Shown piece after piece: positions 307 through 11,772 of a stretch of 11,772 nucleotides of DNA. The translations under genes were made by a program, and so were the position numbers. The notes below the pieces were generated by a model. The model saw only the letters and a list, made by a program, of their open reading frames with translations, was not told where the DNA came from and did not search any database. The stretch is from Clostridia bacterium. GTDB taxonomy: Bacteria; Bacillota; Clostridia; Lachnospirales; CAG-274. Numbering within the stretch: position 1 is the stretch's first letter; every line of letters begins with the position of its first letter. The DNA lies in contig JAUNPM010000026.1 in the NCBI GenBank assembly GCA_030536675.1, positions 1 through 11,772 on the forward strand, given 5' to 3'.

Positions 307-3300
307 ATGAAAAATGTGATTTGTAACGGATTACCTGAAAAGCAGGGATTGTATGATCCTATGTTTGAGCACGATAACTGTGGTATAGGCTGTCTTGTAA
401 ATATAAAGGGCAGAAAATCTCACAAAATTATTAATGATGCTATTGAAATTCTTAAAAACCTTACCCACAGAGGCGGCGTGGGAAGTGAACCCGATACAGG
501 CGACGGTGCCGGTATACTTATACAGATACCTCATAATTTTATGAAAAAGGTCTGTCAAAATGAAGGCATAAAGCTGCCTGCAGAAGGAGATTACGGCGTT
601 GGTATGCTTTTCTTATCTCCTGATGATGAAACGAGAGAGAGAAGCGTTTGCAAGCTCCGCAACATTGTTAAAGAAGAGGGTATGGAGTTTTTAGGCATAA
701 GAGAAGTGCCTACATATGCTAACTGCATAGGAAATACTGCAAGAGAGGCTATGCCTCACATTGTGCAGGTTTTTATAAAAAGACCCGATGAGGTTGATGC
801 AGGCATTGCTTTTGAAAGAAAACTTTTTGTTGTTCTGAAAAGAGCAGAAAAGGAAATAAGATATTGTGAACTTACAAATGACATATATAATGAAAGGGAC
901 AGCTATTTTTACTTTGCATCTCTTTCATCAAGAACTATGGTTTATAAGGGTATGCTTACTCCCGATCAGGTTTCTAAGTTTTATCTTGACCTTATGGATC
1001 TTGATATGACAACTGCAATAGCTCTTGTACACAGCCGTTTTTCAACCAATACATTCCCAAGCTGGGAAAGAGCTCATCCTAACAGATATATTATTCACAA
1101 TGGTGAAATAAATACAATAAGAGGTAATATAAACTGGACTAACGCAAGACAGCAAATGTTTGATACAGATATATTCGGTGATGATATTACTAAGATTTAT
1201 CCCGTAATAAATGAGGATGGTTCAGACTCTGCAATGCTTGACAATTATCTCCATATGCTTACATTGTCAGGCATACCTATACAGCAGGCTGTAATGATGG
1301 CTATTCCCGAACCATGGGAAAATGATAAATCAATGGATAAGGCAAAGAGAGCCTTTTATGAATATAATTCAACCTGTACGGAGCCTTGGGACGGACCAGC
1401 TGCAATTGCCTTTACTGACGGTGTTGTAGTGGGAGCTACTCTTGACAGAAACGGCTTAAGACCTGCAAGATATGTTGTTACAAATGATGATATGCTTGTG
1501 CTTTCATCTGAAGTGGGCGTAATTGACATTGATGAATCAAAGGTTATAAAGAAAAGCAGACTTGAACCCGGTAAAATGCTTCTTATAGATACAAAAGAGG
1601 GCAGAATCGTATCCGATGAGGAATTAAAGGGCGAGGTTGCTTCAAGGTATCCTTACGAAAAATGGATAAGTGAAAATCTTACTGATATAAATAATATTAA
1701 ATCTGGTAAGAAGGCTCTTGTATGGACTGACCTTGTAGATGCAATAAAAGAAAAAAATGCAAAAATGCATCACGGGGATATAATGATAAACAGGCTTATT
1801 GAGCTTGAAAACTTATTTGTAAACAAAGAAAATGATTTTGATACAAAGGAAACTTTGCTTACACAGCAAAAAGCATTCGGATATACGTGGGAAGATATAG
1901 ACGCTACATTAAAGGGAATGATGGAAACAGGAACAGATCCTATTTCTGCAATGGGAACAGATTCTCCTTTAGCTGTTCTTTCAGATAAGCCACAGCTTTT
2001 ATATAATTATTTTAAGCAGCTTTTTGCACAGGTTACAAATCCTCCTATTGATGCAATAAGAGAGGAGATAGTAACAAGTACTCTTGTATACCTTGGAGGA
2101 GAAAAGAATATACTTGATCCGAAAGCGGAAAATTGCAGAAGAATAAAGTGTGATACTCCTATACTTACAAATGAGCAGACGGCTTCAATAAAAGCTATTG
2201 ATGATGAAAATTATAAATCAGTAACTATTCCTATGCTTTACAATATTAAGGAAGAAAACGGCCTTGAAAGTGCTATTGACTGTATATTTGAGGCTGCGGA
2301 TATAGCTATAGATAACGGCTGCAACATTATTGTCCTTTCAGATAAGGGCGTTGATAAAAATAAGTGCGCTATTCCGGCTCTTCTTGCAGGTGCAGGACTT
2401 CATCACCACTTAATAAGACAGGGAACAAGAATGAAGGTTTCAATTGTTATTGAAACAGGTGAACCAAGAGAGGTGCATCACTTTGCAGTGCTTTTGGGTT
2501 ATGGCGTAAATGCCGTAAATCCATATCTTGTGTATGAAACATTAAAGGATATGGCTGAAAATGATTACATTACAAAAACAGCAGATGAGGCTGTAAAACT
2601 TTATATAGATGTTGTAACTCACGGTATTGTAAAAATTATGTCTAAAATGGGTATATCTACAATACAGAGTTATCAGGGTGCCCAGATATTTGAGGCACTT
2701 GGCGTAAGCGAGGCAATTGTAAACAAATTCTTTACGGGTACTGTAACAAGAATTGGCGGTATTGAGCTTTCTCATATTGACAAAGAGGCTAAAATGCGTC
2801 ATACAAAGGCCTTTGATCCTCTTACAAAGGTTGAAGCTCTTGAACCCGGCGGAGATTACAAGTGGAGAAAGAACGGGGAATATCATATGTTTAACCCACG
2901 TTCAATTTATCTTTTACAGAAAGCCTGCCGTGAAGGAGATTACAAGCTCTTTAAAGAGTTTACAAATATGCAGAATGACACAAGTGAACAGCTTTGTACA
3001 ATAAGAGGGCTTTTGGATATAAGAACTATTGACAAGCCTATAAATATAGATGAAGTTGAACCTGTGGAATCAATTGTAAAAAGATTTAAAACAGGTGCAA
3101 TGAGCTACGGCTCAATTTCAAAGGAAGCACACGAGTGTATGGCTATTGCAATGAACAGACTGGGCGGTAAGTCAAACTCAGGTGAAGGCGGCGAGGAAGC
3201 TGAAAGATTTACTCCCGATGAAAACGGTGATTTAAGACGTTCTGCAATTAAGCAGGTTGCTTCGGGAAGATTTGGCGTGACTATCCACTATTTGCAAAAT

Positions 3301-5076
3301 GCAATAGAAATACAGATCAAAATGGCACAGGGCGCAAAGCCCGGTGAAGGCGGTCATTTGCCTGGTAAAAAGGTTTATCCTTGGATAGCAAAGGCAAGAA
3401 ATTCAACTCCCGGTGTAGGACTTATTTCACCTCCTCCTCACCACGATATTTATTCAATTGAGGATCTTGCGCAGCTTATACACGATTTAAAAAATGCAAA
3501 CAGAGATGCAAGAATTTCCGTTAAACTTGTTAGTGAAGCAGGCGTTGGTACTATTGCAGTAGGTGTTGCAAAGGGAAGAGCCGACGTAATTCTTGTAAGC
3601 GGCTATGACGGAGGTACAGGAGCGGCTCCGAGAACATCTGTCAGACACGCAGGTCTTCCTTGGGAGCTTGGTGTTGCGGAAACTCATCAGGCGCTTCTTA
3701 TGAATAATCTTAGAAACAGAGTTGTTATAGAAACAGACGGTAAGCTTTTAACAGGAAGAGATATAGCGGTAGCTTGTCTTTTGGGTGCGGAAGAATTTGG
3801 ATTTGCAACAGGTCCGCTTATTACAATGGGCTGTGTTATGATGAGAGTTTGTAATCTTGACACCTGCCCTGTAGGCGTTGCAACACAAAATCCCGAGCTT
3901 AGAAAGAAGTTTAGAGGAAAGCCTGAATATGTTGAAAACTTTATGAGATTTATTGCACAGGATCTTAGAGAATGGATGGCAAGAATTGGCTGCAAGACAA
4001 TAAATGAAATGATAGGTCACGTTGAAAAACTTACTCCTAAGAAGCTTAGCCACTGGAAGGCTAAGGAGGTTGACCTTACAAGTATGCTTTATCAGCCTAA
4101 GATCTGTTCAAATGATTCCGAAAGATATTTTAATGTGAAGCAGGATCACGAGCTTGAAAAGTGCCTTGATGTAAATGCTCTTGTAAGACTTTGTACACCT
4201 GCTATCAAGGAAGGTAAGAAGATAAATGCTTCTCTTGAAATAACCAATATTGACAGAGTGTGCGGAACAATACTTTCAAGTGAAATTACCAAAAAATACG
4301 GAGTTGAAGGACTTCCCGATGATACTATAAATCTTGAATTTGAGGGCAGTGCAGGTCAAAGTTTCGGAGCTTTTCAGACTCATGGTGTAACTATGAAGCT
4401 TTCAGGAGACGCCAATGACTATATAGGCAAGGGCTTATCAGGCGGTAAGATAGTTGTTGTACCGTCCAAAAAGGCTAAATTTACGGCAGAAGATAATGTT
4501 ATCATAGGCAATGTGGCATTTTACGGTGCTATAAGCGGCGAGGCTTATATAAACGGTATGGCAGGAGAAAGATTTTGTGTAAGAAACTCAGGTATTACCG
4601 CAGTAGTTGAGTCTATAGGTCAGCACGGCTGTGAATATATGACGGGAGGTCGTGTAGCCGTACTTGGAAAAACAGGAAGAAACTTCGGAGCAGGTATGTC
4701 AGGCGGGGTTGCTTATGTTTATAATTACGGCGGAGATTTTGAGTCAAGATGCAATAAGGAATTGATACTTCTTGAAGAAGTTACAAGAGATAAAGATATT
4801 GCCGAATTAAAAACAATGATCGAAAATCACGTTAAGTACACAGGCTCTCAAAGAGGAAAGGAATTACTTGAAAACTTTGATGAGGAAATAAAGAATTTTG
4901 TTAAGGTTATACCTAAGGCTTATAAAGAAATGATTGAAGAAATTGACAGAGCAAAGGCAGCAGGATTAAGCGATGAGGACGCTTTGCTTGACGCTTTCAT
5001 TACAGTAAGCGGGTCAACAATAGTTAAAAGACCCGAAGCTGCCATTAAATCAGAAAGGAGTGCTGTAAATGGGTAA
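307..5076 (+). CDS. gltB: Glutamate synthase large subunit (GOGAT alpha chain). N-terminal class-II glutamine amidotransferase with catalytic Cys in EHDNCGIGC, a central domain, an FMN/3Fe-4S domain (CNLDTCPVG, GGTGAAP) and a C-terminal GXGXG beta-helix domain.
   Basis: Uninterrupted 1589-aa ORF. The hallmark motifs of the large GOGAT subunit are readable throughout the translation: HSRFSTNTFPSWERAHP, the PPPHHDIYSIEDL FMN-domain motif, and CVMMRVCNLDTCP. AAAGG (302-306) abuts the ATG at 307, so an in-frame GTG at 316 with 5-nt spacing is an alternative start. Confidence 0.95.
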   Translation: MKNVICNGLPEKQGLYDPMFEHDNCGIGCLVNIKGRKSHKIINDAIEILKNLTHRGGVGSEPDTGDGAGILIQIPHNFMKKVCQNEGIKLPAEGDYGVGMLFLSPDDETRERSVCKLRNIVKEEGMEFLGIREVPTYANCIGNTAREAMPHIVQVFIKRPDEVDAGIAFERKLFVVLKRAEKEIRYCELTNDIYNERDSYFYFASLSSRTMVYKGMLTPDQVSKFYLDLMDLDMTTAIALVHSRFSTNTFPSWERAHPNRYIIHNGEINTIRGNINWTNARQQMFDTDIFGDDITKIYPVINEDGSDSAMLDNYLHMLTLSGIPIQQAVMMAIPEPWENDKSMDKAKRAFYEYNSTCTEPWDGPAAIAFTDGVVVGATLDRNGLRPARYVVTNDDMLVLSSEVGVIDIDESKVIKKSRLEPGKMLLIDTKEGRIVSDEELKGEVASRYPYEKWISENLTDINNIKSGKKALVWTDLVDAIKEKNAKMHHGDIMINRLIELENLFVNKENDFDTKETLLTQQKAFGYTWEDIDATLKGMMETGTDPISAMGTDSPLAVLSDKPQLLYNYFKQLFAQVTNPPIDAIREEIVTSTLVYLGGEKNILDPKAENCRRIKCDTPILTNEQTASIKAIDDENYKSVTIPMLYNIKEENGLESAIDCIFEAADIAIDNGCNIIVLSDKGVDKNKCAIPALLAGAGLHHHLIRQGTRMKVSIVIETGEPREVHHFAVLLGYGVNAVNPYLVYETLKDMAENDYITKTADEAVKLYIDVVTHGIVKIMSKMGISTIQSYQGAQIFEALGVSEAIVNKFFTGTVTRIGGIELSHIDKEAKMRHTKAFDPLTKVEALEPGGDYKWRKNGEYHMFNPRSIYLLQKACREGDYKLFKEFTNMQNDTSEQLCTIRGLLDIRTIDKPINIDEVEPVESIVKRFKTGAMSYGSISKEAHECMAIAMNRLGGKSNSGEGGEEAERFTPDENGDLRRSAIKQVASGRFGVTIHYLQNAIEIQIKMAQGAKPGEGGHLPGKKVYPWIAKARNSTPGVGLISPPPHHDIYSIEDLAQLIHDLKNANRDARISVKLVSEAGVGTIAVGVAKGRADVILVSGYDGGTGAAPRTSVRHAGLPWELGVAETHQALLMNNLRNRVVIETDGKLLTGRDIAVACLLGAEEFGFATGPLITMGCVMMRVCNLDTCPVGVATQNPELRKKFRGKPEYVENFMRFIAQDLREWMARIGCKTINEMIGHVEKLTPKKLSHWKAKEVDLTSMLYQPKICSNDSERYFNVKQDHELEKCLDVNALVRLCTPAIKEGKKINASLEITNIDRVCGTILSSEITKKYGVEGLPDDTINLEFEGSAGQSFGAFQTHGVTMKLSGDANDYIGKGLSGGKIVVVPSKKAKFTAEDNVIIGNVAFYGAISGEAYINGMAGERFCVRNSGITAVVESIGQHGCEYMTGGRVAVLGKTGRNFGAGMSGGVAYVYNYGGDFESRCNKELILLEEVTRDKDIAELKTMIENHVKYTGSQRGKELLENFDEEIKNFVKVIPKAYKEMIEEIDRAKAAGLSDEDALLDAFITVSGSTIVKRPEAAIKSERSAVNG

Positions 5077-6532
5077 ACCAACAGGATTTATGGAATACGA
5101 AAGAAAACTTCCGGAGGACAGAAAGCCTGAAGTCAGAATGAAGGACTGGGGTGAATTCCATACACACTCCAATATTGATGAGCTTCAAACACAGGGCGCA
5201 AGATGTATGAACTGCGGTGTTCCTTTTTGTCACACAGGCGATCCCCTTGTAGGCGGCTGTCCTTTAAATAACCTTATTCCCGAGTGGAATGATCTTGTAT
5301 ATCACGGTAAAATTGAAGAGGCTTATAAAAGACTTTCAAAAACAAGTAACTTCCCGGAGTTTACGGGAAGGGTATGTCCGGCTCTTTGTGAAGGCTCCTG
5401 TACACTTGGTATGAATGAACCTGCGGTTACGGTTAAAAACATAGAGGTTCATATTATTGATACGATGTTTGAGCAGGGTAAGGTACAGCCCAGAATACCT
5501 AAAAAGTCTACTGAAAAGAGAGTTGCGGTTGTAGGTTCAGGACCTTCAGGTCTTGCCTGCGCCGACATTCTTAATCAAATGGGACATAAGGTCACTGTAT
5601 TTGAGCGTTCTGACAGAGTAGGCGGTTTGCTTATGTATGGTATTCCAAATATGAAGCTTGATAAGAAGATAGTTCAAAGAAGAGTGGACATTCTTGAAAA
5701 AGAGGGTATTGTTTTTGTTACAAATACAGAAGTGGGCAAAAATTATCCTACGGCAAAGCTTATAAATGAATTTGACGCTGTTGTTCTCTGCTGTGGTGCA
5801 ACTAAGCCTAGGGATTTGGTTTGTGAAGGCAGAAATGATGTAAACGGTATTTATTTTGCCGTGGACTTTTTAAAGGCAAATACAAAGAGCCTGCTTGATT
5901 CAAACCTTTCAGACAGACAGTTTATAAGCGCAGAGGGCAAGGATGTAATTATTGTAGGCGGCGGAGATACGGGTACAGACTGTGTGGGTACTTCAATAAG
6001 ACACGGCTGCAAGTCTGTTTTCCAAATGGAAATTATGCCTGAGGCTCCCGAGTGCAGAACTGCGGCAAATCATTGGCCACAGTGGCCCAGAATAAAGAAA
6101 ACTGATTATGGACAGGAAGAGGCAATCAAGCTTTACGGACGTGATCCGAGAGAATATCTTACAACAGTAACAAAGGTGGTTCCCGATGAAAAGGGAAATA
6201 TTAAGGAGGTCCATACTGTACAGGTAAAATGGAACAATGTAAACGGAAGAATGGTTTCTGAGTATATTCCCGGAACTGAAAAGGTTTGGCCTTGTCAATT
6301 GATGCTTTTGGCAATGGGCTTTACGGGTCCTGAAGATACATTGATAAAACAGCTTTCTCTTGAAACGGATCAGAGAAGCAATGTTAAAACACCTTTAGGC
6401 AAGTATAACACAAGTCTTAAAGGAGTTTTTGCGGCAGGAGATATGAGAAGAGGACAAAGTCTTGTTGTTTGGGCTATCCATGAGGGAAGAGAAGCGGCAA
6501 AGGCTTGTAATGAGTATCTTAATAAAAAATAA
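5069..6532 (+). CDS. gltD: Glutamate synthase small subunit (NADPH-dependent, GOGAT beta chain). N-terminal Cys clusters (CMNCGVPFCH, CPALCEGSC), an FAD fold (VAVVGSGPSGLACA) and an NADPH fold (IIVGGGDTGTDC).
   Basis: 487-aa ORF. RBS GAAAGGAG at 5050-5057. The ATG at 5069 overlaps the gltB stop by 8 nt (ATGGGTAA), which indicates translational coupling. The motifs are characteristic of the GltD/dihydropyrimidine dehydrogenase PreT family. Confidence 0.95.
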   Translation: MGKPTGFMEYERKLPEDRKPEVRMKDWGEFHTHSNIDELQTQGARCMNCGVPFCHTGDPLVGGCPLNNLIPEWNDLVYHGKIEEAYKRLSKTSNFPEFTGRVCPALCEGSCTLGMNEPAVTVKNIEVHIIDTMFEQGKVQPRIPKKSTEKRVAVVGSGPSGLACADILNQMGHKVTVFERSDRVGGLLMYGIPNMKLDKKIVQRRVDILEKEGIVFVTNTEVGKNYPTAKLINEFDAVVLCCGATKPRDLVCEGRNDVNGIYFAVDFLKANTKSLLDSNLSDRQFISAEGKDVIIVGGGDTGTDCVGTSIRHGCKSVFQMEIMPEAPECRTAANHWPQWPRIKKTDYGQEEAIKLYGRDPREYLTTVTKVVPDEKGNIKEVHTVQVKWNNVNGRMVSEYIPGTEKVWPCQLMLLAMGFTGPEDTLIKQLSLETDQRSNVKTPLGKYNTSLKGVFAAGDMRRGQSLVVWAIHEGREAAKACNEYLNKK

Positions 6533-6544
6533 TGTTAAGTTAAG

Positions 6545-6577
6545 CGGGTTTGGTTTAAAATCAGACCCGTTTTTTTG
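6545..6577 (+). terminator. Rho-independent terminator of the glt operon.
   Basis: CGGGTTTGG (6545-6553), loop TTTAAAA, then CAGACCCG (6562-6569). The stem is about 9 bp including G-U pairs and is followed by TTTTTTT (6570-6576). It sits 13 nt after the gltD stop. Confidence 0.7.
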
Positions 6578-6749
6578 TTTGAGCTTATAATAAAATGGTA
6601 ATTTTAAAAGTATAGAGAATAAAGAAAAATAAAAGGTCATAAAAATTATAGAAGCATAAAAATGATTTTGTATACGTATGAGTGCAAAAATATGATTAAA
6701 TTAAAAAATGCTTTAAATGGGTTTGTTTTGTGAATTTTGTAGAAATGTA

Positions 6750-6786
6750 TTGACTTTTAGTACAATAAAATGTAAAATATTTTACA
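6750..6786 (+). promoter_or_regulatory. SigmaA-type promoter candidate, -35 TTGACT (6750-6755), 17-nt spacer, -10 TAAAAT (6773-6778). It overlaps a perfect 16-bp palindrome TGTAAAATATTTTACA (6771-6786), a candidate operator.
   Basis: Read directly. The palindrome is exact: the reverse complement of TGTAAAAT is ATTTTACA. It covers the -10 element, the classic position for a repressor site. It resembles but does not match the 17-bp TnrA/GlnR box TGTNA-N7-TNACA, being 1 bp shorter. Confidence 0.35.
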
Positions 6787-7027
6787 GGATATTAAGCACA
6801 TTCCTTGTGCGTTGAAAAAGAATTTATCAGTGTCTTTTGTGGGTAACAGAGGTAAAAAAGAATATTTATACGGATAAGTAAATACAGAAATTTGTAAATA
6901 CGGAAGATAAAATTACGTGAACGAATAAGTTATAGATATAGTAAATTTATGGTATTTTTATCGGATAATTTACGGCAGCATATTACGTAAGAAAAATAAA
7001 CAAACTATAGCATTGAGGGGGATAACA

Positions 7028-8332
7028 ATGGCAGTAGCAGAAGTCGTTAAGTATAATGGTAGTCCAGATGTATTCGCATGGAAATATCCCAGTGAAGAAT
7101 TGGGGACTTGGACACAATTGGTTGTAAATGAATCACAAGAAGCGGTTTTAGTAAAAAGCGGAAAGGTTTTGGATGCCTTTGGCAGTGGACGCCATACGCT
7201 TGATACAGCAAACATTCCTATTCTTAATAATATTATCAATCTTCCCTTTGGAGGAAGAAGTCCGTTTACTGCAGAAGTTTGGTTCATAAATAAGGGATAT
7301 AATCTTGACGTTAAATGGGGAACTCCTACACCTATACAGATCCAAGACCCTAAGTATGGTATATTTGCTCCTGTTCGCTCAAATGGTGCCTTTGGTATTC
7401 ATATATCAGATGCTAAAAAATTTTTGATAAAGCTTGTAACAACGATGCCGACCTTTGATACGGCGACAATTACAAAGTATTTTAGAAGCCTTTATGTTAC
7501 AAAGGTAAAGGATGCAATTTCCACATATCTGGTACATAAACAAATAAGCATATTGGAAATCAATGCATATATTGATGAGCTTTCTAAGCATATGAAAGAA
7601 AGAATCCGACCTGTAATGGACGATTACGGCATTGAGCTTGTATCTTTTTATGTAAATGAGATAAGTGTTCCTGAGGACGATACGGCAGTTAAAAAGCTGA
7701 AGGATGCTTTGTCCAAGAGGGCAGAAATGAACATTATAGGATACAGCTATCAGCAAGAGCGATCCTTTGATACACTTGAAGGAGCTGCAAAGAATACAGG
7801 CTCTACAGCTGCTCCACTTATGGGTGCAGGTATGGGATTGGGAATGGGCTTAGGTATGGGACGAGGAGTAGGAAGAAGTTTCAGTAACATCACCCATGAA
7901 ATCCAAATAAACAATAATGAGGAATCAACGAAAGAATGTCCTAATTGTCATTCACGTATTTCCAATATGCAAAGGTTCTGCGGAAATTGTGGATTTGATA
8001 CGGAAAAAAAGCCTGAAGCAAAAAAAGAACAGTCTTTAATGTGTTCTGCTTGCGGAAGCGCAATAGAAAAAAATACAAAGTTTTGTCCCGAGTGTGGCAG
8101 GAAGATCAACCACTGTCCAAATTGCGGCAATGATATTGGGGATGATACAACAAGGTGTGATATCTGCGGTTATGAAAAGCCTCAGCAGTGTCCAAACTGC
8201 GGTGCCGAAATTTCCGCAAAGTCAAAATTCTGTCCCGAATGTGGGCACGTGTTGGTAAAGTTTTGCCCAAAGTGTAATTCTCCCATTGAGGGTGAGAGTA
8301 AGTTCTGCCCCGAATGTGGTGAGAAGCTGTAA
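7028..8332 (+). CDS. SPFH/Band-7 family protein of the COG4260 (B. subtilis YdjI-like) type. It has an N-terminal SPFH-like domain of about 265 aa, a Gly/Met-rich low-complexity linker (GAGMGLGMGLGMGRGVG), and a C-terminal array of five tandem zinc ribbons (CPNC..CGNC, CSAC..CPEC, CPNC..CDIC, CPNC..CPEC, CPKC..CPEC).
   Basis: The ORF track starts at a TTG at 7013. The more plausible start is the ATG at 7028 (MAVAEV...), 6 nt downstream of the RBS GAGGGGG (7015-7021). The N-terminal region (VFAWKYP...AEVWFINKGYNLDVKWGT...) matches my recollection of COG4260/Band_7_1 proteins. Twenty Cys are arranged as 5 x CxxC-N10-11-CxxC between nt 7937 and 8320. Confidence 0.8.
   Translation: MAVAEVVKYNGSPDVFAWKYPSEELGTWTQLVVNESQEAVLVKSGKVLDAFGSGRHTLDTANIPILNNIINLPFGGRSPFTAEVWFINKGYNLDVKWGTPTPIQIQDPKYGIFAPVRSNGAFGIHISDAKKFLIKLVTTMPTFDTATITKYFRSLYVTKVKDAISTYLVHKQISILEINAYIDELSKHMKERIRPVMDDYGIELVSFYVNEISVPEDDTAVKKLKDALSKRAEMNIIGYSYQQERSFDTLEGAAKNTGSTAAPLMGAGMGLGMGLGMGRGVGRSFSNITHEIQINNNEESTKECPNCHSRISNMQRFCGNCGFDTEKKPEAKKEQSLMCSACGSAIEKNTKFCPECGRKINHCPNCGNDIGDDTTRCDICGYEKPQQCPNCGAEISAKSKFCPECGHVLVKFCPKCNSPIEGESKFCPECGEKL
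7820..7876 (+). repeat. Short imperfect tandem nucleotide repeat (GGTATGGGA/TTGGGAATGGGC...) encoding the Gly/Met-rich linker MGAGMGLGMGLGMGRGVGR inside the SPFH gene.
   Basis: Seen directly in nt 7820-7876 as repeated GGNATGGGN units. This is low-complexity coding sequence. A similar Gly/Met-rich linker precedes the zinc ribbon in YdjI-type proteins, but that is from memory. Confidence 0.5.
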
Positions 8333-8344
8333 GGGGGCGATGTT

Positions 8345-9043
8345 ATGAATAGAAGAAGTATAACAATATTGATCAGCGGTATTATAACGTTATTTGTTAC
8401 GATTGTAATTGCCGCACTTTGCATTGACGATTGGTCAGGTTTGACAGGCTGGGCATTTAGCTCAATGCTTTTGTCTGAAATTATTTTATTTGGCGGATTT
8501 ATATTTGTTGAATGGATCGCTGAAAGAACAGAGCAAATAATTACACGCTCTGCTTTATATGTACTTTTTTCTGTATATGCAATTATTAACATACCTGTTT
8601 CTGTTCTTTACATTGCATTTTTTAAGGAGGCAACAACTTCATTTGTAATTATAGAGGTTATTCTCCTTGCTGTTGTTATCATTGCTGTTTTAATATGTCT
8701 TGTAACAAGTAAAAGTATTAATCAGTCTAATGAGATGACAATGAATAATGTGTTAAGCGTTGAGTCAATGATTGAGCGTTTGAGTAAATTGGCTGATTCC
8801 AATCGATGTGAAAAATATTCTTCTGCATTGAAAAAGGCAGGGGAAAATTTGAGATTTACAGATGTTTCAGTAATCGTTCCGGAAGATGAAGAAATAGACA
8901 AAGCTATTTCAGCTATTGAAATCGACGTGACAGGGGATAATGAAATGACTGAAGAAGTGCTTAACGGATATTTAGTTCGCCTAAACTCTTTAATTGCCAA
9001 AAGAAAGATAGCTGCGAGCTTTTCTAAGAAAGGGAGGGTGTAA
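8345..9043 (+). CDS. Polytopic membrane protein. About 4 predicted TM helices in residues 5-122, then a roughly 110-aa acidic, predicted-helical cytoplasmic C-terminal domain. Function unknown.
   Basis: 232-aa ORF. RBS AGGGGG 7 nt upstream of the ATG. It starts 12 nt after the stop of the SPFH gene. Four hydrophobic stretches begin at SITILISGIITLFVTIVIAAL, GWAFSSMLLSEIILFGGFIF, SALYVLFSVYAIINIPVSVLYIAFF and SFVIIEVILLAVVIIAVLICLV. There are no Cys pairs and no recognisable catalytic motif. Confidence 0.75.
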   Translation: MNRRSITILISGIITLFVTIVIAALCIDDWSGLTGWAFSSMLLSEIILFGGFIFVEWIAERTEQIITRSALYVLFSVYAIINIPVSVLYIAFFKEATTSFVIIEVILLAVVIIAVLICLVTSKSINQSNEMTMNNVLSVESMIERLSKLADSNRCEKYSSALKKAGENLRFTDVSVIVPEDEEIDKAISAIEIDVTGDNEMTEEVLNGYLVRLNSLIAKRKIAASFSKKGRV

Positions 9044-9046
9044 TAT

Positions 9047-9742
9047 ATGTTTCAAAAAAATGGTAGTAAAGCAAGCAAAGGTGCTTCGTGGGCAGTTATA
9101 ATTATTTTACTGATATTCTTTTGTTATGTGGGTATTCCCTTGATGCTTAGTAAGTTACATAAGGATACAGAAAATATGCTGTTCAATGCAAAGAGAACTA
9201 TTACAGTGGGTTGGATCTTTTTCGCAATTGGCTGTATGTATTTGTTCTTAGGGCTTACGGGAGCTCTTAATCCCAATGATGGAAGCAATTTTGTAGGCTT
9301 TCTTGTATTTATTGTAGTTTTGTTATGCGGCGGTGGTTATGCTATTGTAAGACACGCAAAAAAATACAGAAATTGGGGACTTATGTATGAACGTTACCTT
9401 CCTGTTTTGTCAGGCTTGCCTACGGGTTCTTTGGATGAGCTGGCAGAAACGGTTGGGGAAACTTATGATGTGACATCTAAGAATATACAGAACTTGATCG
9501 ATATTGGATTACTTGAAAACAGCTATATAGATAAAACCAGAAGAAGTCTTGTTTCTCCTGTTGTTTCAAGTACGTACAGACCTAAGCAAAGCTCTGACGA
9601 AGCGGAGGTCAAAAATACTCAGCAGGCAAAGCCGAGAGCATCAAAAGTACATACAATTAAGTGCCCAAATTGCGGCGGTGTGAACAATGTTACCGAAGGT
9701 GCGGTAAATATTTGTGATTACTGTGGTACTGCATTAGAATGA
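9047..9742 (+). CDS. Membrane-anchored protein with 2-3 N-terminal TM helices, a cytoplasmic winged-HTH-like segment (LDELAETVGETYDVTSKNIQNLIDIGLLENSYID), a linker and a C-terminal zinc ribbon (KCPNCGG-N14-CDYCG). It is a paralog of the next gene.
   Basis: 231-aa ORF. RBS GGGAGGG, 3 nt after the previous stop. The hydrophobic helices are WAVIIILLIFFCYVGIPLML, VGWIFFAIGCMYLFLGLTGAL and FVGFLVFIVVLLCGGGYAIV. Positive residues (RHAKKYR) follow the last TM, indicating a cytoplasmic C-domain. The Cys4 motif is encoded at nt 9662-9727. Confidence 0.75.
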   Translation: MFQKNGSKASKGASWAVIIILLIFFCYVGIPLMLSKLHKDTENMLFNAKRTITVGWIFFAIGCMYLFLGLTGALNPNDGSNFVGFLVFIVVLLCGGGYAIVRHAKKYRNWGLMYERYLPVLSGLPTGSLDELAETVGETYDVTSKNIQNLIDIGLLENSYIDKTRRSLVSPVVSSTYRPKQSSDEAEVKNTQQAKPRASKVHTIKCPNCGGVNNVTEGAVNICDYCGTALE

Positions 9743-9760: not shown

Positions 9761-10357
9761 ATGAATAATTCAAAAGTGACTATTGCTGTAAACAGAACTA
9801 TAAGCTTGATACAATTGATTGCAGGAATTTTCTTTGTATTTATTTTCGGTATTTGTACTATTGTGTACTTGTTTGACAAAACTATATCTGCGGATGCAGG
9901 TACAAGTTTCTTGATTTGCTGTTTGGTTTTTGATGCTTTGGGTATATGGCTGATAATATGCTCTAAAAAGAAGAAAAAACTTATAAATACCTTTAAAACA
10001 TATGTAATTGCTATTTCAAATGACGGCAGCAGTCACATACCTGATATTGCGGCTTCTGTGGGAACATCGGAAGATGTTGTGAGGAAAAATCTTGATATTA
10101 TGATCAAGAAAAAGTTTTTCCAAAATGCATATATTGACCAAAGCGCAAATTGTATTGTGATTTCAAGTAATAAGGCTGTGCAGAATGTAACAGCTTCAAA
10201 CGCTTTTGAAAACAAATCACAGGCTTCTAAAAATAATACGTCTGCATCGGCGGAAATGGTAACTGTTAAATGTAATGGCTGCGGAGCAGTTAATACTATT
10301 GAAAAGGGAAAAACAGGCGAATGTGATTACTGCGGTTCTGTAATTAAGGGAGAATAG
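9761..10357 (+). CDS. Membrane-anchored protein with 2 TM helices, a cytoplasmic winged-HTH-like segment (IPDIAASVGTSEDVVRKNLDIMIKKKFFQNAYID) and a C-terminal zinc ribbon (KCNGCGA-N14-CDYCG). It is a paralog of the previous gene.
   Basis: 198-aa ORF. RBS GTGAGGAAAAG, 18 nt after the previous stop. A KKKKK stretch after TM2 places the C-domain in the cytoplasm. The ribbon (I/V)KCxxCG(G/A)VN...CDYCG(T/S) is conserved with ORF 9047..9742, and the wHTH-like block ends in the same ..AYID motif in both. Confidence 0.75.
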   Translation: MNNSKVTIAVNRTISLIQLIAGIFFVFIFGICTIVYLFDKTISADAGTSFLICCLVFDALGIWLIICSKKKKKLINTFKTYVIAISNDGSSHIPDIAASVGTSEDVVRKNLDIMIKKKFFQNAYIDQSANCIVISSNKAVQNVTASNAFENKSQASKNNTSASAEMVTVKCNGCGAVNTIEKGKTGECDYCGSVIKGE

Positions 10358-10434: not shown

Positions 10435-11019
10435 TTATTCTTTTTGTTCTGCAGGATCTTGATAGCGTATGACTTTTGCAGGAACACCTCCGACTACAGC
10501 ATAGTCGGGTACATCTTTTGTGACAACTGCTCCTGCGCCAACCACAGCGTATTTTCCAATAGTTACCCCCGGACATATGGTAACGTTCATACCGATCCAC
10601 GAATTCTTTTTCAGTGTTACTTTTCCATAGGTGTAAATGGAATGTCTTTCATTCATATTATGATTTATTGTGGCAATGCGTACCCCCGGAGCAAGCATAA
10701 CTCCGTCTTCAAATTCGATGCCGCCTGAAGCTGAAAGAATAGCGGAATGATTGATAAATACTCCCTTTCCGAATTTTACTCTGTTTCCGAAATCACAAAT
10801 GAAGGGTGTAAGTATTCTTATATCTTCAAGAGCTCTTCCGAATAATTCTTCCAAATATGTAATATATGACGGATCGTTGGGCAAAATTGCATTTACCTTT
10901 GCACAAAGTGTTCTGGCACGCATCATTTCATCAACTGCTTCCTTGAAATAATCTTCACGTACGTCTGTTGGTCCTCCCTGATCCATTAATTTATATACAT
11001 AGCCATTTTCATAATTCAT
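10435..11019 (-). CDS. Hexapeptide-repeat (left-handed beta-helix) sugar O-acetyltransferase of the maltose/galactoside O-acetyltransferase (Maa/LacA) family.
   Basis: The translation carries N-terminal Mac-domain-like motifs ([29 protein letters not shown]) and then hexapeptide repeats ([43 protein letters not shown]). The start is assigned to the ATG at 11019 (MNYENGY...), which has the RBS AAAGGTGG 7 nt upstream. The track's ATG at 11037 lacks an SD. Confidence 0.8.
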
Positions 11020-11521
11020 TTTGTAACCACCTTTCAATTATATTTTTTGATTTATCAACACTGCTTCCGTTTATTGCAAGACCTTTTGAAACTTTAGCGC
11101 CTTTAGTTGTGTTTGCAATATCTTTTTCTGTTGATGAAAGTCCGCTGCCCTCGTGGGTGCAGAATGGGTATATAGTCTTTCCGCTGAAATCAAATGCTTC
11201 CAGAAAGGTATATACTGCCATAGGCATAGTGCCCCAATAGTTGGGATATCCAAGATATATTTCATCATACATATCCAAATTATTGGGTAATTTAGTAAGT
11301 TCGGGTCTTGCGTTTGTTTGAAGATCTTTCTTCGCTTCTTCAATGCAAGTATTATAATCTTTTGAATAAGGCTTTATTTGTTCTATTTTAAACAAGTCTG
11401 CGCCTGTGATATTTGAAATTATTTTTGCTGCTTTTTCTGTATTTCCCACGGTTATATATTTCAGAGAGCCGCCGAAATAGTTTTCATCGGCTCTTGAATA
11501 AAATGCTACAAGTTTTTTCAC
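11009..11521 (-). CDS. Flavodoxin-family protein (flavodoxin-like fold, Flavodoxin_4-type), a probable FMN-binding redox protein.
   Basis: The translation ...[17 protein letters not shown]...[37 protein letters not shown]... is typical of the short flavodoxin-like family. The start is assigned to the GTG at 11521, which has the RBS GGAAGGAGA 9 nt upstream, and reads MKKLVAFYS. The track's TTG at 11548 is unlikely. It overlaps the acetyltransferase start by 11 nt. Confidence 0.65.
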
Positions 11522-11772
11522 TTTTCGTTTTCTCCTTCCTTGTTCCAAGTTAATTTTCCTGTTTCCAATGCCTTTTCATAAATTGAAATTTTATATGAAA
11601 GTCTTTCCATTGTTTCTTCTATATGCTTTTTTTGAGATTTCAAAACGTCCATTTGGTTTTTCAGAAGCTCTAATCTTGCAGGGATTGTTTGATCCCCTTG
11701 CTGAAACAGATTTACGTATTCTATCATAACTTCAATAGGCAAGCCTGAACTTCTCATACAAATTGCCAATTG
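11518..11772 (-). CDS. MerR-family transcriptional regulator. Only the C-terminal dimerisation and effector part is present. The N-terminal HTH lies beyond the window end.
   Basis: The translation ...MRSSGLPIEVMIEYVNLFQQGDQTIPARLELLKNQMDVLKSQKKHIEETMERLSYKISIYEKALETGKL has the MerR coiled-coil and linker signature (motif LFQQGD). The TGA stop overlaps the GTG start of the flavodoxin gene (GTGA), which indicates translational coupling. Confidence 0.7.
   Translation of the reverse strand, partial: QLAICMRSSGLPIEVMIEYVNLFQQGDQTIPARLELLKNQMDVLKSQKKHIEETMERLSYKISIYEKALETGKLTWNKEGENEK

Follow-up and report, generated by a model that had tools for sequence, protein, structure and literature searches.

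A Clostridia SPFH protein with five C-terminal zinc ribbons and its operon of membrane proteins

In all domains of life, SPFH proteins serve to organise microdomains of the membrane and to regulate the proteins in it. Work on the soluble YdjI/SamI branch has been confined to Bacillus subtilis, where it carries one zinc finger and is linked to PspA. YdjI is soluble and consists of an SPFH domain, a low-complexity region and one zinc finger; its membrane localisation needs YdjG and YdjH, and in the B. subtilis two-hybrid study it interacted with YdjH and PspA, with no interaction with YdjG reported (PMC8581546). SamI restrains SamGH signalling (bioRxiv 10.64898/2026.02.06.704340). The domain that defines the subfamily, PF13421, is also the commonest partner domain of SHOCT (PMC3581485).

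Here we describe a relative of YdjI encoded in a stretch of 11,772 nt from a gut Clostridia bacterium (contig JAUNPM010000026.1, hereafter the window). Like YdjI (SamI), the protein belongs to the PF13421 / COG4260 subfamily, has no anchor, runs through a low-complexity region into a C-terminal zinc-binding motif and is encoded together with integral membrane proteins, YdjG itself having zinc ribbons (PMC8581546, PMC11237479, bioRxiv 10.64898/2026.02.06.704340). By its description YdjI has one ribbon, whereas the Clostridia protein has five. The SPFH gene stands last in B. subtilis samGHI (pspA-ydjGHI) and first in the Clostridia operon, and no linkage to pspA was found at the Clostridia locus. 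The features of the protein are as follows.

7028..8332, + strand: five-ribbon SPFH gene, stop codon counted, encoding a soluble protein of 434 aa
7091..7681, + strand: SPFH / Band_7_1 domain, Pfam PF13421 (aa 22-218)
7682..7780, + strand: short helical extension past the SPFH core (aa 219-251), with helices at aa 219-237 and 242-251 by DSSP of the AF2 model
7781..7924, + strand: disordered linker (aa 252-299), pLDDT below 50 over aa 250-299 in the AF2 model
about 7820-7873, + strand: Gly/Met-rich stretch MGAGMGLGMGLGMGRGVG (aa 265-282), inside the disordered linker
7937..7990, + strand: ribbon 1, CPNCHSRISNMQRFCGNC (aa 304-321), basic, mean net charge +2.2
8042..8095, + strand: ribbon 2, CSACGSAIEKNTKFCPEC (aa 339-356), mean net charge +1.3
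8114..8167, + strand: ribbon 3, CPNCGNDIGDDTTRCDIC (aa 363-380), acidic, mean net charge -1.9, D369 invariant
8189..8242, + strand: ribbon 4, CPNCGAEISAKSKFCPEC (aa 388-405), mean net charge +0.8
8264..8317, + strand: ribbon 5, CPKCNSPIEGESKFCPEC (aa 413-430), mean net charge +0.2, with just 4 residues after it

The gene starts with the ATG at 7028, which has the ribosome-binding site GAGGGGG ahead of it, although the open reading frame as listed begins at an in-frame TTG at 7013; homolog P0001 is 100% identical to the 434-aa protein. The PF13421 profile matched aa 22-218 with an E-value of 1.3e-48 and a score of 165.8 bits (cut-off 24), the match taking in its positions 8 to 199 out of 211, and the AF2 model has a pLDDT of about 70-86 across the domain. 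The fold is borne out by a Foldseek search with this model, whose top PDB matches were stomatin, HflK/C, prohibitin, flotillin and QmcA, all at probability 1.0 and with E-values of 4.5e-9 to 1e-5 for the cage-forming SPFH structures. We looked for a hydrophobic segment or membrane anchor in the protein and found none, the maximum 19-aa Kyte-Doolittle mean being 1.02. Profile, fold, solubility and the low-complexity region with C-terminal ribbons all agree with membership of PF13421 / COG4260 (YdjI/SamI-type), and the COG name, 'contains C-terminal Zn-ribbon domain', agrees with the name supplied by the source for homolog P0088. The earlier note on this DNA had read the protein as an SPFH domain fused through a Gly/Met linker to five zinc ribbons. 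This was confirmed by Pfam, a regex scan, AF2 and Foldseek: in the 434-aa protein a PF13421 SPFH domain leads through a disordered linker rich in Gly and Met into five bona fide zinc-ribbon units. It should be noted that the family is widespread, that COG and Pfam already cover this architecture and that GenBank annotates it generically; it is a modest variant, no new kind of system.

The SPFH fold is shared with HflK/C-FtsH, QmcA-YbbJ, stomatin, flotillin, prohibitin and erlin, in which the oligomer organises membrane proteins that are often co-encoded. The cage-forming members have a membrane anchor, long coiled-coil walls and a C-terminal crown, whereas the Clostridia protein is soluble and continues for about 35 helix residues past the SPFH core, followed by the disordered linker and the ribbons. 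The Gly/Met-rich stretch of this linker is upstream of the ribbons as the earlier note had it, though not directly, with about 20 residues between it and ribbon 1. A 12-nt tandem repeat lies in the linker-coding DNA at 7828-7861, and among full-length relatives 63% have a Gly-rich window (at least 7 Gly in 20 residues, beyond aa 230).

Retranslation of 7028-8332 returned exactly the ribbon peptides that had been quoted, and the regex scan found exactly five CxxC-N10-CxxC units, within which all 20 Cys fall. The count of five therefore stands, but the units had been described as CxxC-N10-11-CxxC with 7-15 residues between them; all are N10, and from the last Cys of a unit to the first of the following one there are 17, 6, 7 and 7 residues. 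Zn_Ribbon_1 (PF13240) matched five separate stretches (E 1e-28, 98.7 bits against a cut-off of 25), and DZR (PF12773) scored 86.6 bits against a cut-off of 27.3, its best match being ribbons 4 and 5 (aa 388-431) over the full profile length. These scores, like that of PF13421, are far beyond chance. Structure prediction agrees with the ribbon reading of the Cys spacing, as AF2 places short beta-hairpins at each CxxC pair, with beta-strands at every knuckle, at moderate confidence (pLDDT 58-78). The ribbons presumably bind zinc; in proteins of the HVO_2753 type some of the Cys4 pockets are empty.

Those proteins, with four CPxCG motifs, and the DZR family PF12773 resemble the tail in having CPxCG-type ribbon pairs at short fixed spacing, but the HVO_2753 type are free-standing small proteins, some of them ribosome-associated. 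Ribbons 4-5 weakly match HVO_2753-like and DUF1610 chains at E-values of 5e-4 to 0.07, which may reflect the Cys pattern only. Relatives of the tail among solved structures were Cys-pattern matches (the designed C2H2 protein Aart, and RNF4) and marginal double-ribbon matches, and were uninformative.

Further we compared the spacing and identity of the ribbons among homologs. Across 115 homologs the R1-R2 spacer varies between 11 and 31 residues and is the sole variable linker, rich in K and E. Of these homologs, 107 have 6 residues between R2 and R3 and all have 7 between R3 and R4, and in the homolog alignment R4-R5 is fixed at 7 residues. The 'periodic K/E-rich spacers' described before come down to a single one, KKPEAKKEQ between ribbons 1 and 2. 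Between proteins, ribbons at the same position share an identity of 0.44-0.59 against 0.19-0.47 for different positions, and the non-Cys positions are also conserved by position. The charges listed above differ along the array, and the whole tail is mildly basic (mean +3, thiolates not counted). Judged by these alignments, the ribbons are individualised by position, each with its own signature, and ribbons 2-5 form a rigidly spaced block, which is not the array of equivalent repeats on K/E spacers that had been pictured. Based on fixed spacing and the DZR profile match, the block likely comprises two compact double-ribbon units. We also considered a recent repeat expansion and ruled it out: DNA repeats are confined to the segments coding for KFCPECG (70-88% over 17-27 nt by TRF and a repeat finder), and ribbon identity within the protein equals that between proteins. 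The duplications are thus old, and concerted evolution is absent.

All 20 Cys are invariant in an alignment of 57 homologs, and the organisms are strict anaerobes. These 20 Cys per subunit might be taken as a latch that responds to oxidation or zinc and lets the tail unfold under stress, or as a store that buffers zinc, and Cys4-Zn redox switches occur in other stress proteins, e.g. Hsp33 and the ZAS anti-sigma factors. We consider such a function very improbable, since none of the data are specific to it, invariant Cys are expected at any structural zinc site, and the conservation by position extends to non-Cys residues.

The five-ribbon form is the standard conserved form in its own clade and not an oddity. 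It was found in 111 of 120 close homologs and in 78 of 80 species-level genomes, Clostridia-wide (Lachnospiraceae, Oscillospiraceae, Clostridiaceae, Erysipelotrichaceae and others). Variants of 407-412 aa with four ribbons, lacking ribbon 5, are P0048, P0051, P0067, P0069, P0085 and P0113; ribbon 5 is also missing at locus L015. To cover wider relatives we searched with just the SPFH domain and took the closest 150 cluster representatives. Tree building was by UPGMA plus Fitch parsimony. Behind the same Gly-rich linker, 84 of the 150 have one to five ribbons (one in 13, two in 34, three in 24, four in 9 and five in 4), 21 have SHOCT and 9 have GYF_2. Ribbon number in homologs thus ranges from 0 to 5, the modular-repeat behaviour that had been predicted, and two or three are commonest among the SPFH-only relatives. 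The statement that YdjI-type proteins usually end in a single ribbon finds no support in these counts. The SHOCT- and GYF_2-tailed PF13421 proteins share 34-51% identity with the Clostridia protein in the SPFH region, and have the same Gly-rich linker and either a single small adaptor domain at the C-terminus or a short row of such domains. Since one to five ribbons, SHOCT or GYF_2 follow one and the same linker, the tail is an interchangeable C-terminal adaptor.

This bears on the possibility that the ribbon block joins SPFH subunits at the apex of a ring or dome and so replaces the beta-barrel crown of HflK/C, flotillin and stomatin. All of the nearest structural relatives in Foldseek are SPFH proteins that form cages closed by their C-termini, the fixed spacing and position-specific conservation of ribbons 2-5 would suit a self-packing structural module, and SHOCT, the alternative tail, was first proposed as an oligomerisation element, although the test of SHOCT oligomerisation was negative (PMC3581485). 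In the solved cages the coiled coil runs without a break into the crown, which a disordered linker of roughly 50 residues does not resemble, and relatives with 0-5 ribbons or unrelated tails are hard to reconcile with an essential architectural cap, hence we find a cap unlikely.

The SPFH gene is followed by three genes for membrane proteins, here called M1, M2 and M3, and the features of the operon are given below.

6542..6572, + strand: terminator-like hairpin, 14-pair stem then a T-run, after the glutamate-synthase small-subunit gene
6750..6778, + strand: best sigma-70-like promoter match ahead of the operon, TTGACT-17-TAAAAT, 10 of 12 consensus positions, a consensus match only
8345..9043, + strand: M1, 232 aa, four TM segments and a C-terminal soluble half
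9047..9742, + strand: M2, 231 aa, three TM segments, then a winged-helix-like region, with the ribbon CPNCGG...CDYCG at the C-terminus (about 9662-9727)
9761..10357, + strand: M3, 198 aa, two TM segments, a winged-helix-like region at aa about 75-134 (about 9983-10162), a disordered linker and a ribbon

The hairpin sets the SPFH operon apart as a transcription unit of its own. Transcription from the candidate promoter would give a leader of about 250 nt, but promoter-like sites in the region are no more numerous than the shuffled expectation; a search for regulatory RNA in the 495-nt upstream gap gave no Rfam match at gathering thresholds. The intergenic gaps from SPFH through M1 and M2 to M3 are 12, 3 and 18 nt. 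M2 and M3 are paralogs with 24% identity and the same layout, and in their alignment most invariant or nearly invariant columns fall in the C-terminal ribbon and the winged-helix-like region. The M3 ribbon is a CxxC-N13-CxxC unit (aa 171-191) that resembles Rpb12/RpoP (E 0.005). The AF2 model of M3 (pLDDT 71) gave weak Foldseek matches of the winged-helix region to DtxR, MntR, MepR and PCI domains at E-values of 0.1-0.7. None of M1-M3 had a significant match in Pfam or NCBIfam; M1 had none in PADLOC either, and all its homologs are named 'hypothetical'. YdjH is described with a TPM domain, for which M1-M3 gave no match in Pfam, and the layouts of M1-M3 also differ from that of YdjG, described as two N-terminal ribbons, an NTF2-like domain and a TM segment.

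The layout of an SPFH gene, a gene for a 4-TM protein and one or two genes for proteins that combine TM segments with a winged-helix-like region and a ribbon at the C-terminus recurs among 80 related loci. A homolog or positional equivalent of M1 is directly 3' of the SPFH gene in 69 of them, and the M2/M3 family is present in 76, with two copies in 23, so that the co-encoded membrane proteins with C-terminal ribbons singled out by the earlier note are indeed conserved partners. Antisense shadow ORFs aside, SPFH, M1 and M2/M3 are the only gene families found in more than 16 of the 80 loci. Neither the window nor any of the 80 related loci, searched to a distance of about 6 kb, has a pspA gene, and PF04012 was absent from the annotated locus contexts examined.

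The flanking genes differ in every genome among the 80 loci, and in the window they are housekeeping genes (glutamate synthase, acetyltransferase, flavodoxin). Two neighbourhoods could point to an anti-phage or abortive-infection membrane module, or to a mobile-element gene: the Inconstantimicrobium cassette adjoins genes for ApeA-HEPN, an AAA_15/21 ATPase and a DUF2726-helicase, and a distant relative is carried by a Butyrivibrio plasmid and has restriction-subunit and toxin-antitoxin genes next to it. The four operon proteins, however, hit zero PADLOC-DB 2.0 families at E <= 0.01, there were 5 weak phage matches and 157 plasmid matches, all of the latter below 38% identity, and no defence neighbour is conserved among the variable flanks. 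A defence system or mobile element was rejected on these grounds, and we hold it to be highly improbable.

As the reading that fits best, with a probability of about one half, we propose that the protein is a YdjI/SamI-like scaffold beneath the membrane, anchored by its operon partners, with the ribbon array as a differentiated protein-docking adaptor. The scaffold gene would head a self-contained membrane operon of three to four genes in Clostridia, and its SPFH domains would oligomerise beneath the cytoplasmic membrane like those of other SPFH proteins. As the SPFH protein lacks an anchor of its own, we suggest that the co-translated partners, i.e. the 4-TM protein and the TM, winged-helix-like and ribbon proteins, tie it to the membrane, in parallel with the recruitment of YdjI by YdjG and YdjH in B. 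subtilis. The tail would act as an adaptor on a disordered Gly/Met leash of roughly 50 residues, with a variable linker joining one basic ribbon to a rigidly spaced block of four ribbons that have distinct conserved surfaces, and would contact specific proteins, coupling the scaffold to partners or clients. SHOCT or GYF_2, at the same position in sister clades, would do an equivalent job. Because the partners are not YdjH homologs (no TPM) and pspA is missing from the locus, the analogy to B. subtilis is only architectural, and as no YdjI-YdjG interaction has been reported, ribbon-bearing partners are not proven docking sites even there. The mildly basic tail is also compatible with lipid or nucleic-acid contacts, which counts against an adaptor for proteins only.

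Among the classic modules for binding nucleic acids are zinc ribbons and winged helices, and the ribbons and winged-helix partners might together bind DNA or RNA at the membrane, in one version with a membrane-tethered transcription regulator being sequestered or released under envelope stress. Ribbons 4-5 weakly resemble archaeal double-ribbon proteins that are RNA-binding or ribosome-associated (NF011481, E 4.9e-4; PDB 9fhl, 6sw9 and 6ydh, E 0.005-0.07), the M3 cytoplasmic domain weakly matches the DNA-binding domains of DtxR, MntR and MepR, and some relatives are annotated as SPFH+HTH fusions. All of these similarities are below or near significance thresholds, the winged-helix matches equally include protein-protein PCI and methyltransferase dimerisation domains, and the tail is not strongly cationic, its ribbon 3 being conserved as acidic. 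We therefore regard a nucleic-acid tether as quite unlikely.

A scaffold docked through its tail raises the question of whether the tail ribbons bind the partner ribbons themselves. The two belong to different classes: partner ribbons follow VKCxGCG-x11-ECEYCGS (N12-13, Rpb12-like) and tail ribbons CPxCG-x7-KFCPECG (N10), and HMMs of the two gave only 9/197 and 8/86 cross-matches. The GYF_2 clade is informative here, as it shares the operon layout of SPFH, a small 4-TM protein and ribbon-bearing proteins, but differs in the type of tail domain and in having the partner ribbons at the N-terminus instead of the C-terminus. The small 4-TM protein comes first in 68 of 68 loci of this clade, a ZnR protein is within the next three genes in 57 of 60, and 73 of 93 N-terminal-ribbon ORFs match the partner (class-B) HMM. 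Homology of M1 to the 4-TM protein of the GYF_2 clade was tried and rejected, as hmmsearch gave nothing below E 0.03 and hhalign a probability of 23%, and we treat the two as positional analogs only. A neighbour with a partner-class ribbon, annotated as a TFIIB-type ribbon protein, is also found 3' of an SPFH+HTH protein of Comamonas.

The first of the binding targets that the earlier note named for the tail were the C-terminal ribbons of ORFs 9047 and 9761 (M2 and M3), on which five ribbons would give multivalent anchoring of an SPFH ring. Such pairing would agree with the presence of ribbon-bearing membrane partners at 76 of the 80 loci, in two copies at 23, with the place of the C-terminal ribbon among the most conserved M2/M3 columns beside the winged-helix-like region, and with the disordered tethers that carry both the SPFH tail and the M3 ribbon in the AF2 models. 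Comparison gives it no support, however. The partner ribbons are of a distinct class that also accompanies the ribbonless GYF_2-tailed SPFH proteins and the Comamonas protein, which argues against an obligatory pairing; ribbon number stays at five with one or two partner genes; and the two-hybrid study reported no interaction between YdjI and YdjG (PMC8581546). We would thus not expect homotypic docking, and rate it unlikely.

In Clostridia, including many lineages of the human gut, the YdjI/SamI branch has a conserved, differentiated five-ribbon adaptor and travels with different, wholly unannotated membrane partners. Family-wide the C-terminal adaptor is swappable (ribbons, SHOCT, GYF_2), and the operon layout and the partner-specific ribbon class are kept. 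The locus thereby supplies concrete constructs to ask how a soluble SPFH scaffold docks and what it regulates. Further, we speculate on an improbable but wider reading, in which the operon is a PspA-independent envelope-sensing module of Clostridia. The SPFH ring would restrain M2 and M3 as membrane-tethered winged-helix regulators in the way SamI does SamGH, the five ribbons would be an array for multivalent docking, which might respond to zinc or redox state and would free the regulators under stress, and the scaffold and partner ribbon classes would be a previously unrecognised pairing code in thousands of PF13421 operons.

We also looked for pspA beside relatives with fewer ribbons, P0164 and P0171 with one and P0122 and P0133 with two or three, where contigs were short or neighbours unrelated. 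Genes near such few-ribbon relatives encode LRR proteins, PmbA/TldD and a small DZR protein.

The SPFH protein is encoded by a single long ORF on the forward strand (7013-8332 in the ORF list and the raw sequence). The ATG at 7028, giving a product of 434 residues, is the likely start codon, as GAGGGGG is placed seven bases upstream and homologs share the same initial Met. Pfam detected Band_7_1 (PF13421) at aa 22-218 (E 1.3e-48), Zn_Ribbon_1 (PF13240) in five separate stretches (E 1e-28) and DZR, the profile for double zinc ribbons (E 1.2e-24), all far over the curated cut-offs. A pattern scan found exactly five CxxC-N10-CxxC units, the ribbons R1 to R5, which contain all 20 of the 20 cysteines of the protein:

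7937-7990, forward strand: ribbon R1, aa 304-321
8042-8095, forward strand: ribbon R2, aa 339-356
8114-8167, forward strand: ribbon R3, aa 363-380
8189-8242, forward strand: ribbon R4, aa 388-405
8264-8317, forward strand: ribbon R5, aa 413-430

From the pattern scan and the Pfam scores we therefore regard the array as real and no chance pattern, and its position agrees with the 7937-8320 read by the earlier note. The spacers, there described as 7-15 residues long and periodically K/E-rich, measure 17, 6, 7 and 7 residues, and the one between R1 and R2 is the only K/E-rich one. That so Cys-rich a tail acts as a redox or zinc switch seems very improbable to us.

An AF2 model built on a 57-sequence alignment (mean pLDDT 64.9) showed the SPFH core at pLDDT 70-86, two short helices directly after it (aa 219-251), a disordered stretch at aa 250-299 including the Gly/Met-rich part (pLDDT <50) and the ribbon region at pLDDT 58-78, where each CxxC knuckle is modelled with short strands. 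Foldseek against the PDB returned stomatin, HflK/C, prohibitin, flotillin, QmcA and erlin, all with probability 1.0. As no hydrophobic segment was found in the protein (maximum 19-residue hydropathy 1.02), it is a soluble SPFH protein, a property common to this protein and B. subtilis YdjI (PMC8581546).

Five ribbons were found in 111 of the 120 best database matches (66-100% identity); the other nine have four by regex, two of them with 21 Cys that are probably regex misses. Scanning one genome per species, a relative was found in 201 species; 80 loci were retained (59-85% identity), which come from Lachnospiraceae, Oscillospiraceae, Clostridiaceae, Erysipelotrichaceae, Peptostreptococcaceae-like and other Bacillota. 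The ribbon number was five in 78 of these, four in one and three in one, so orthologs do not generally lack the array, and five ribbons is the normal state of the protein's own clade. One locus, L007, is a five-ribbon operon (77% identical) in a MAG labelled Myxococcota, for which a binning or labelling error is the likeliest cause; all other matches are from Bacillota. Close homologs are named 'SPFH domain-containing protein' in GenBank, and one source has them under the COG4260 name 'Membrane protease subunit, stomatin/prohibitin family, contains C-terminal Zn-ribbon domain'.

Further, the SPFH domain alone (aa 1-257) was used as query against 1.84 billion cluster representatives, resulting in 3464 relatives. 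The copy number varies from 0 to 5 among the best 150 of these, with one ribbon in 13, two in 34, three in 24, four in 9, five in 4 and more than five in none; five is hence the top of the range, and the expectation that YdjI-type proteins usually end in a single ribbon fails in this section of the family. Ribbons have been gained and lost frequently: a UPGMA tree of the SPFH domains (122 leaves) requires a minimum of 50 changes in ribbon number, against 65.5 with shuffled labels. This count is approximate, given a crude tree and possible truncation of some metagenomic proteins. The 'ribbon-less' representatives P0137, P0168, P0188, P0191, P0212 and P0220 have Arg-rich nonsense tails, apparently from ribbon-coding DNA translated with a frameshift, and such tails inflate the number of ribbon-less proteins counted in metagenomic sets.

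Full-length relatives without ribbons mostly carry another module after a similar Gly-rich linker, such as one or two SHOCT domains (P0131, P0136), GYF_2 (P0163, P0157) or hydrophobic segments (P0219, P0264). The SHOCT and GYF_2 assignments were upheld by Pfam, and an earlier paper describes the association of SHOCT with PF13421 (PMC3581485). By local HMMs, the best 150 of the 3464 representatives comprise 84 zinc-ribbon, 21 SHOCT, 9 GYF_2, 19 other or absent (several frameshifted) and 17 truncated tails, and in Comamonas a relative bears the annotation 'SPFH and helix-turn-helix domain-containing protein'. The tail of PF13421 SPFH proteins is interchangeable and probably an adaptor.

Comparing the ribbons of 115 five-ribbon proteins one by one, each of R1-R5 was found to have its own conserved signature, with a mean non-Cys identity between proteins of 0.44-0.59 at the same position and 0.19-0.47 at different positions. 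Ribbon identity within one protein equals that between proteins, and there is hence no concerted evolution among the ribbons; repeats at the DNA level are restricted to the KFCPECG-coding segments. The R2-R3 spacer is 6 residues in 107/115 proteins, R3-R4 is 7 in all 115 and R4-R5 is 7 in 114, whereas R1-R2 varies from 11 to 31, and the net charges are +2.2, +1.3, -1.9, +0.8 and +0.2 from R1 to R5. Position-specific signatures, charges and fixed spacers rule out that the ribbons are equivalent repeats, and the tail is best described as one basic ribbon, a flexible linker and a rigidly spaced four-ribbon block. As the DZR profile matches R4-R5 over its full length, and R4-R5 weakly resemble archaeal double-ribbon proteins, this block is consistent with two double-ribbon units. 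Such a block could also cap an SPFH oligomer, an explanation we find rather unlikely.

Downstream of the SPFH gene, with gaps of 12, 3 and 18 nt, follow three membrane-protein genes, M1 to M3:

6542-6572, forward strand: strong terminator-like hairpin following the upstream gene
6750-6778, forward strand: promoter-like site upstream of the SPFH gene
8345-9043, forward strand: M1, four TM segments and a soluble C-terminal half
9047-9742, forward strand: M2, three TM segments and a C-terminal CxxC-N13-CxxC ribbon
9761-10357, forward strand: M3, two TM segments and a C-terminal CxxC-N13-CxxC ribbon

The hairpin and the promoter-like site lie within a 495-nt gap (6533-7027), in which no Rfam family was matched, and would together give the transcript a leader of some 250 nt. 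Neither M1, M2 nor M3 had a significant match in Pfam, NCBIfam or PADLOC, and their database homologs are all named 'hypothetical'. M1 (232 aa) is without family assignment; its relatives at L013, L016, L019 and L041 consist of the ~130-aa 4-TM core only. M2 and M3 are paralogous, each with a conserved cytoplasmic region, which in M3 is modelled as a helix-turn-helix with a beta-wing (AF2, pLDDT 71) and matched weakly by Foldseek to winged-helix domains of DtxR, MntR, MepR and PCI proteins (E 0.1-0.7), and the C-terminal ribbon of M3 resembles Rpb12/RpoP (E 0.005). M2 and M3 define an unannotated protein family, in which 2-3 TM helices are followed by a winged-helix-like domain and, past a disordered linker, a C-terminal Rpb12-like ribbon. 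M2 has an extra N-terminal TM segment, implying that it would be N-out, despite its Lys-rich N-terminus, if M3 is N-in/C-in. We consider nucleic-acid binding, or a tethered regulator, quite unlikely as the function of the system.

When all ORFs of the 80 species loci were clustered, the only recurrent families were SPFH (80 loci), M2/M3 (76 loci, 99 ORFs, often as two paralogs per operon) and M1 (69 loci). Flanking genes vary from genome to genome, and no pspA-like neighbour was recurrent in these loci or present in the annotated contexts. The operon is self-contained, of three to four genes, and with M1-M3 and no pspA it differs from the pspA-ydjGHI operon of B. subtilis, where the partners are YdjG (two ribbons, NTF2-like and TM) and YdjH (TPM domain) (PMC11237479).

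The earlier note proposed, as one of several possibilities, that the tail binds the ribbons of the proteins encoded at 9047 and 9761. If so, SPFH proteins with non-ribbon tails are expected to lack ribbon-bearing partners. Metagenome contigs, searched with aligned SHOCT- and GYF_2-tailed relatives as query, gave 80 loci (L091-L170), all GYF_2-tailed, with the same operon layout: a ~115-aa 4-TM protein comes first in 68/68 loci having a downstream ORF, and an N-terminal-ribbon protein is found within the next three genes in 57/60. These operons hold one to three such ribbon proteins with highly variable C-terminal parts. An HMM of the M2/M3-like C-terminal ribbons (class B, consensus VKCxGCG-x11-ECEYCGS) matches 73 of their 93 N-terminal-ribbon ORFs, the HMM for class A, the SPFH tail ribbons (CPxCG-x7-KFCPECG), only 28, and cross-hits between the classes were few (9/197 and 8/86). 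Hence there are two ribbon classes, with the partner class kept whatever the SPFH tail. The gene after the Comamonas SPFH gene is likewise annotated 'TFIIB-type zinc ribbon-containing protein'. Retention of the partner class across ribbon, GYF_2 and HTH tails speaks for recognition of something constant by the partner ribbon (such as the SPFH core, the linker or the 4-TM protein), and against homotypic docking, which we find unlikely; an additional tail-partner contact may exist.

We suggest, at a probability of roughly one half, that the protein is a YdjI/SamI-like sub-membrane scaffold with a five-ribbon docking adaptor. Its SPFH domains would oligomerise, as the fold family does, and the soluble protein would be recruited by its co-translated membrane partners, as the operon and the B. 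subtilis precedent (PMC8581546) suggest. The array on its disordered leash would serve as a differentiated protein-docking adaptor, a role SHOCT or GYF_2 would fill in sister clades, and the scaffold could, by analogy with SamI, which restrains SamGH (bioRxiv 10.64898/2026.02.06.704340), control how active its membrane partners are. The protein family, its solubility, the low-complexity linker and a C-terminal zinc ribbon are already known; Pfam and COG cover the multi-ribbon architecture, for which GenBank has a generic annotation. The papers found do not describe the five-ribbon state as conserved and position-differentiated in the clostridial clade, the PspA-less operon with three unannotated membrane-protein families, or the two-class ribbon pattern common to the five-ribbon and GYF_2 clades. 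The feature is real, tidy and open to experiment, and no surprise for a specialist.

The operon is flanked by the following genes:

307-5076, forward strand: 1589-aa product, candidate glutamate-synthase large subunit from its N-terminal sequence
5069-6532, forward strand: 487-aa product with Fer4_20 and Pyr_redox_2 (Pfam), as in glutamate-synthase small subunits
10435-11037, reverse strand: hexapeptide-repeat transferase, in a convergent block of three genes
11009-11548, reverse strand: Flavodoxin_4 protein, its 3' end overlapping the start of the transferase ORF
11518-11769, reverse strand: partial MerR-type regulator (MerR from the L001 annotation)

The upstream pair overlaps by 8 nt and is not conserved beside the SPFH operon in other genomes, and the convergent block has no link to it there. 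In one genome only, Inconstantimicrobium mannanitabidum (L084, 1-9758), the genes directly upstream of the five-ribbon operon are defence-like (AAA_15/AAA_21 ATPase, ApeA-HEPN and a DUF2726 helicase with AAA_11/AAA_12); we hold a defence role to be highly doubtful. Beside two unrelated SPFH relatives with one or two ribbons stand leucine-rich-repeat proteins (L086, 4606-5772; L171, 3703-5985), each time on a different side, which may be a coincidence.
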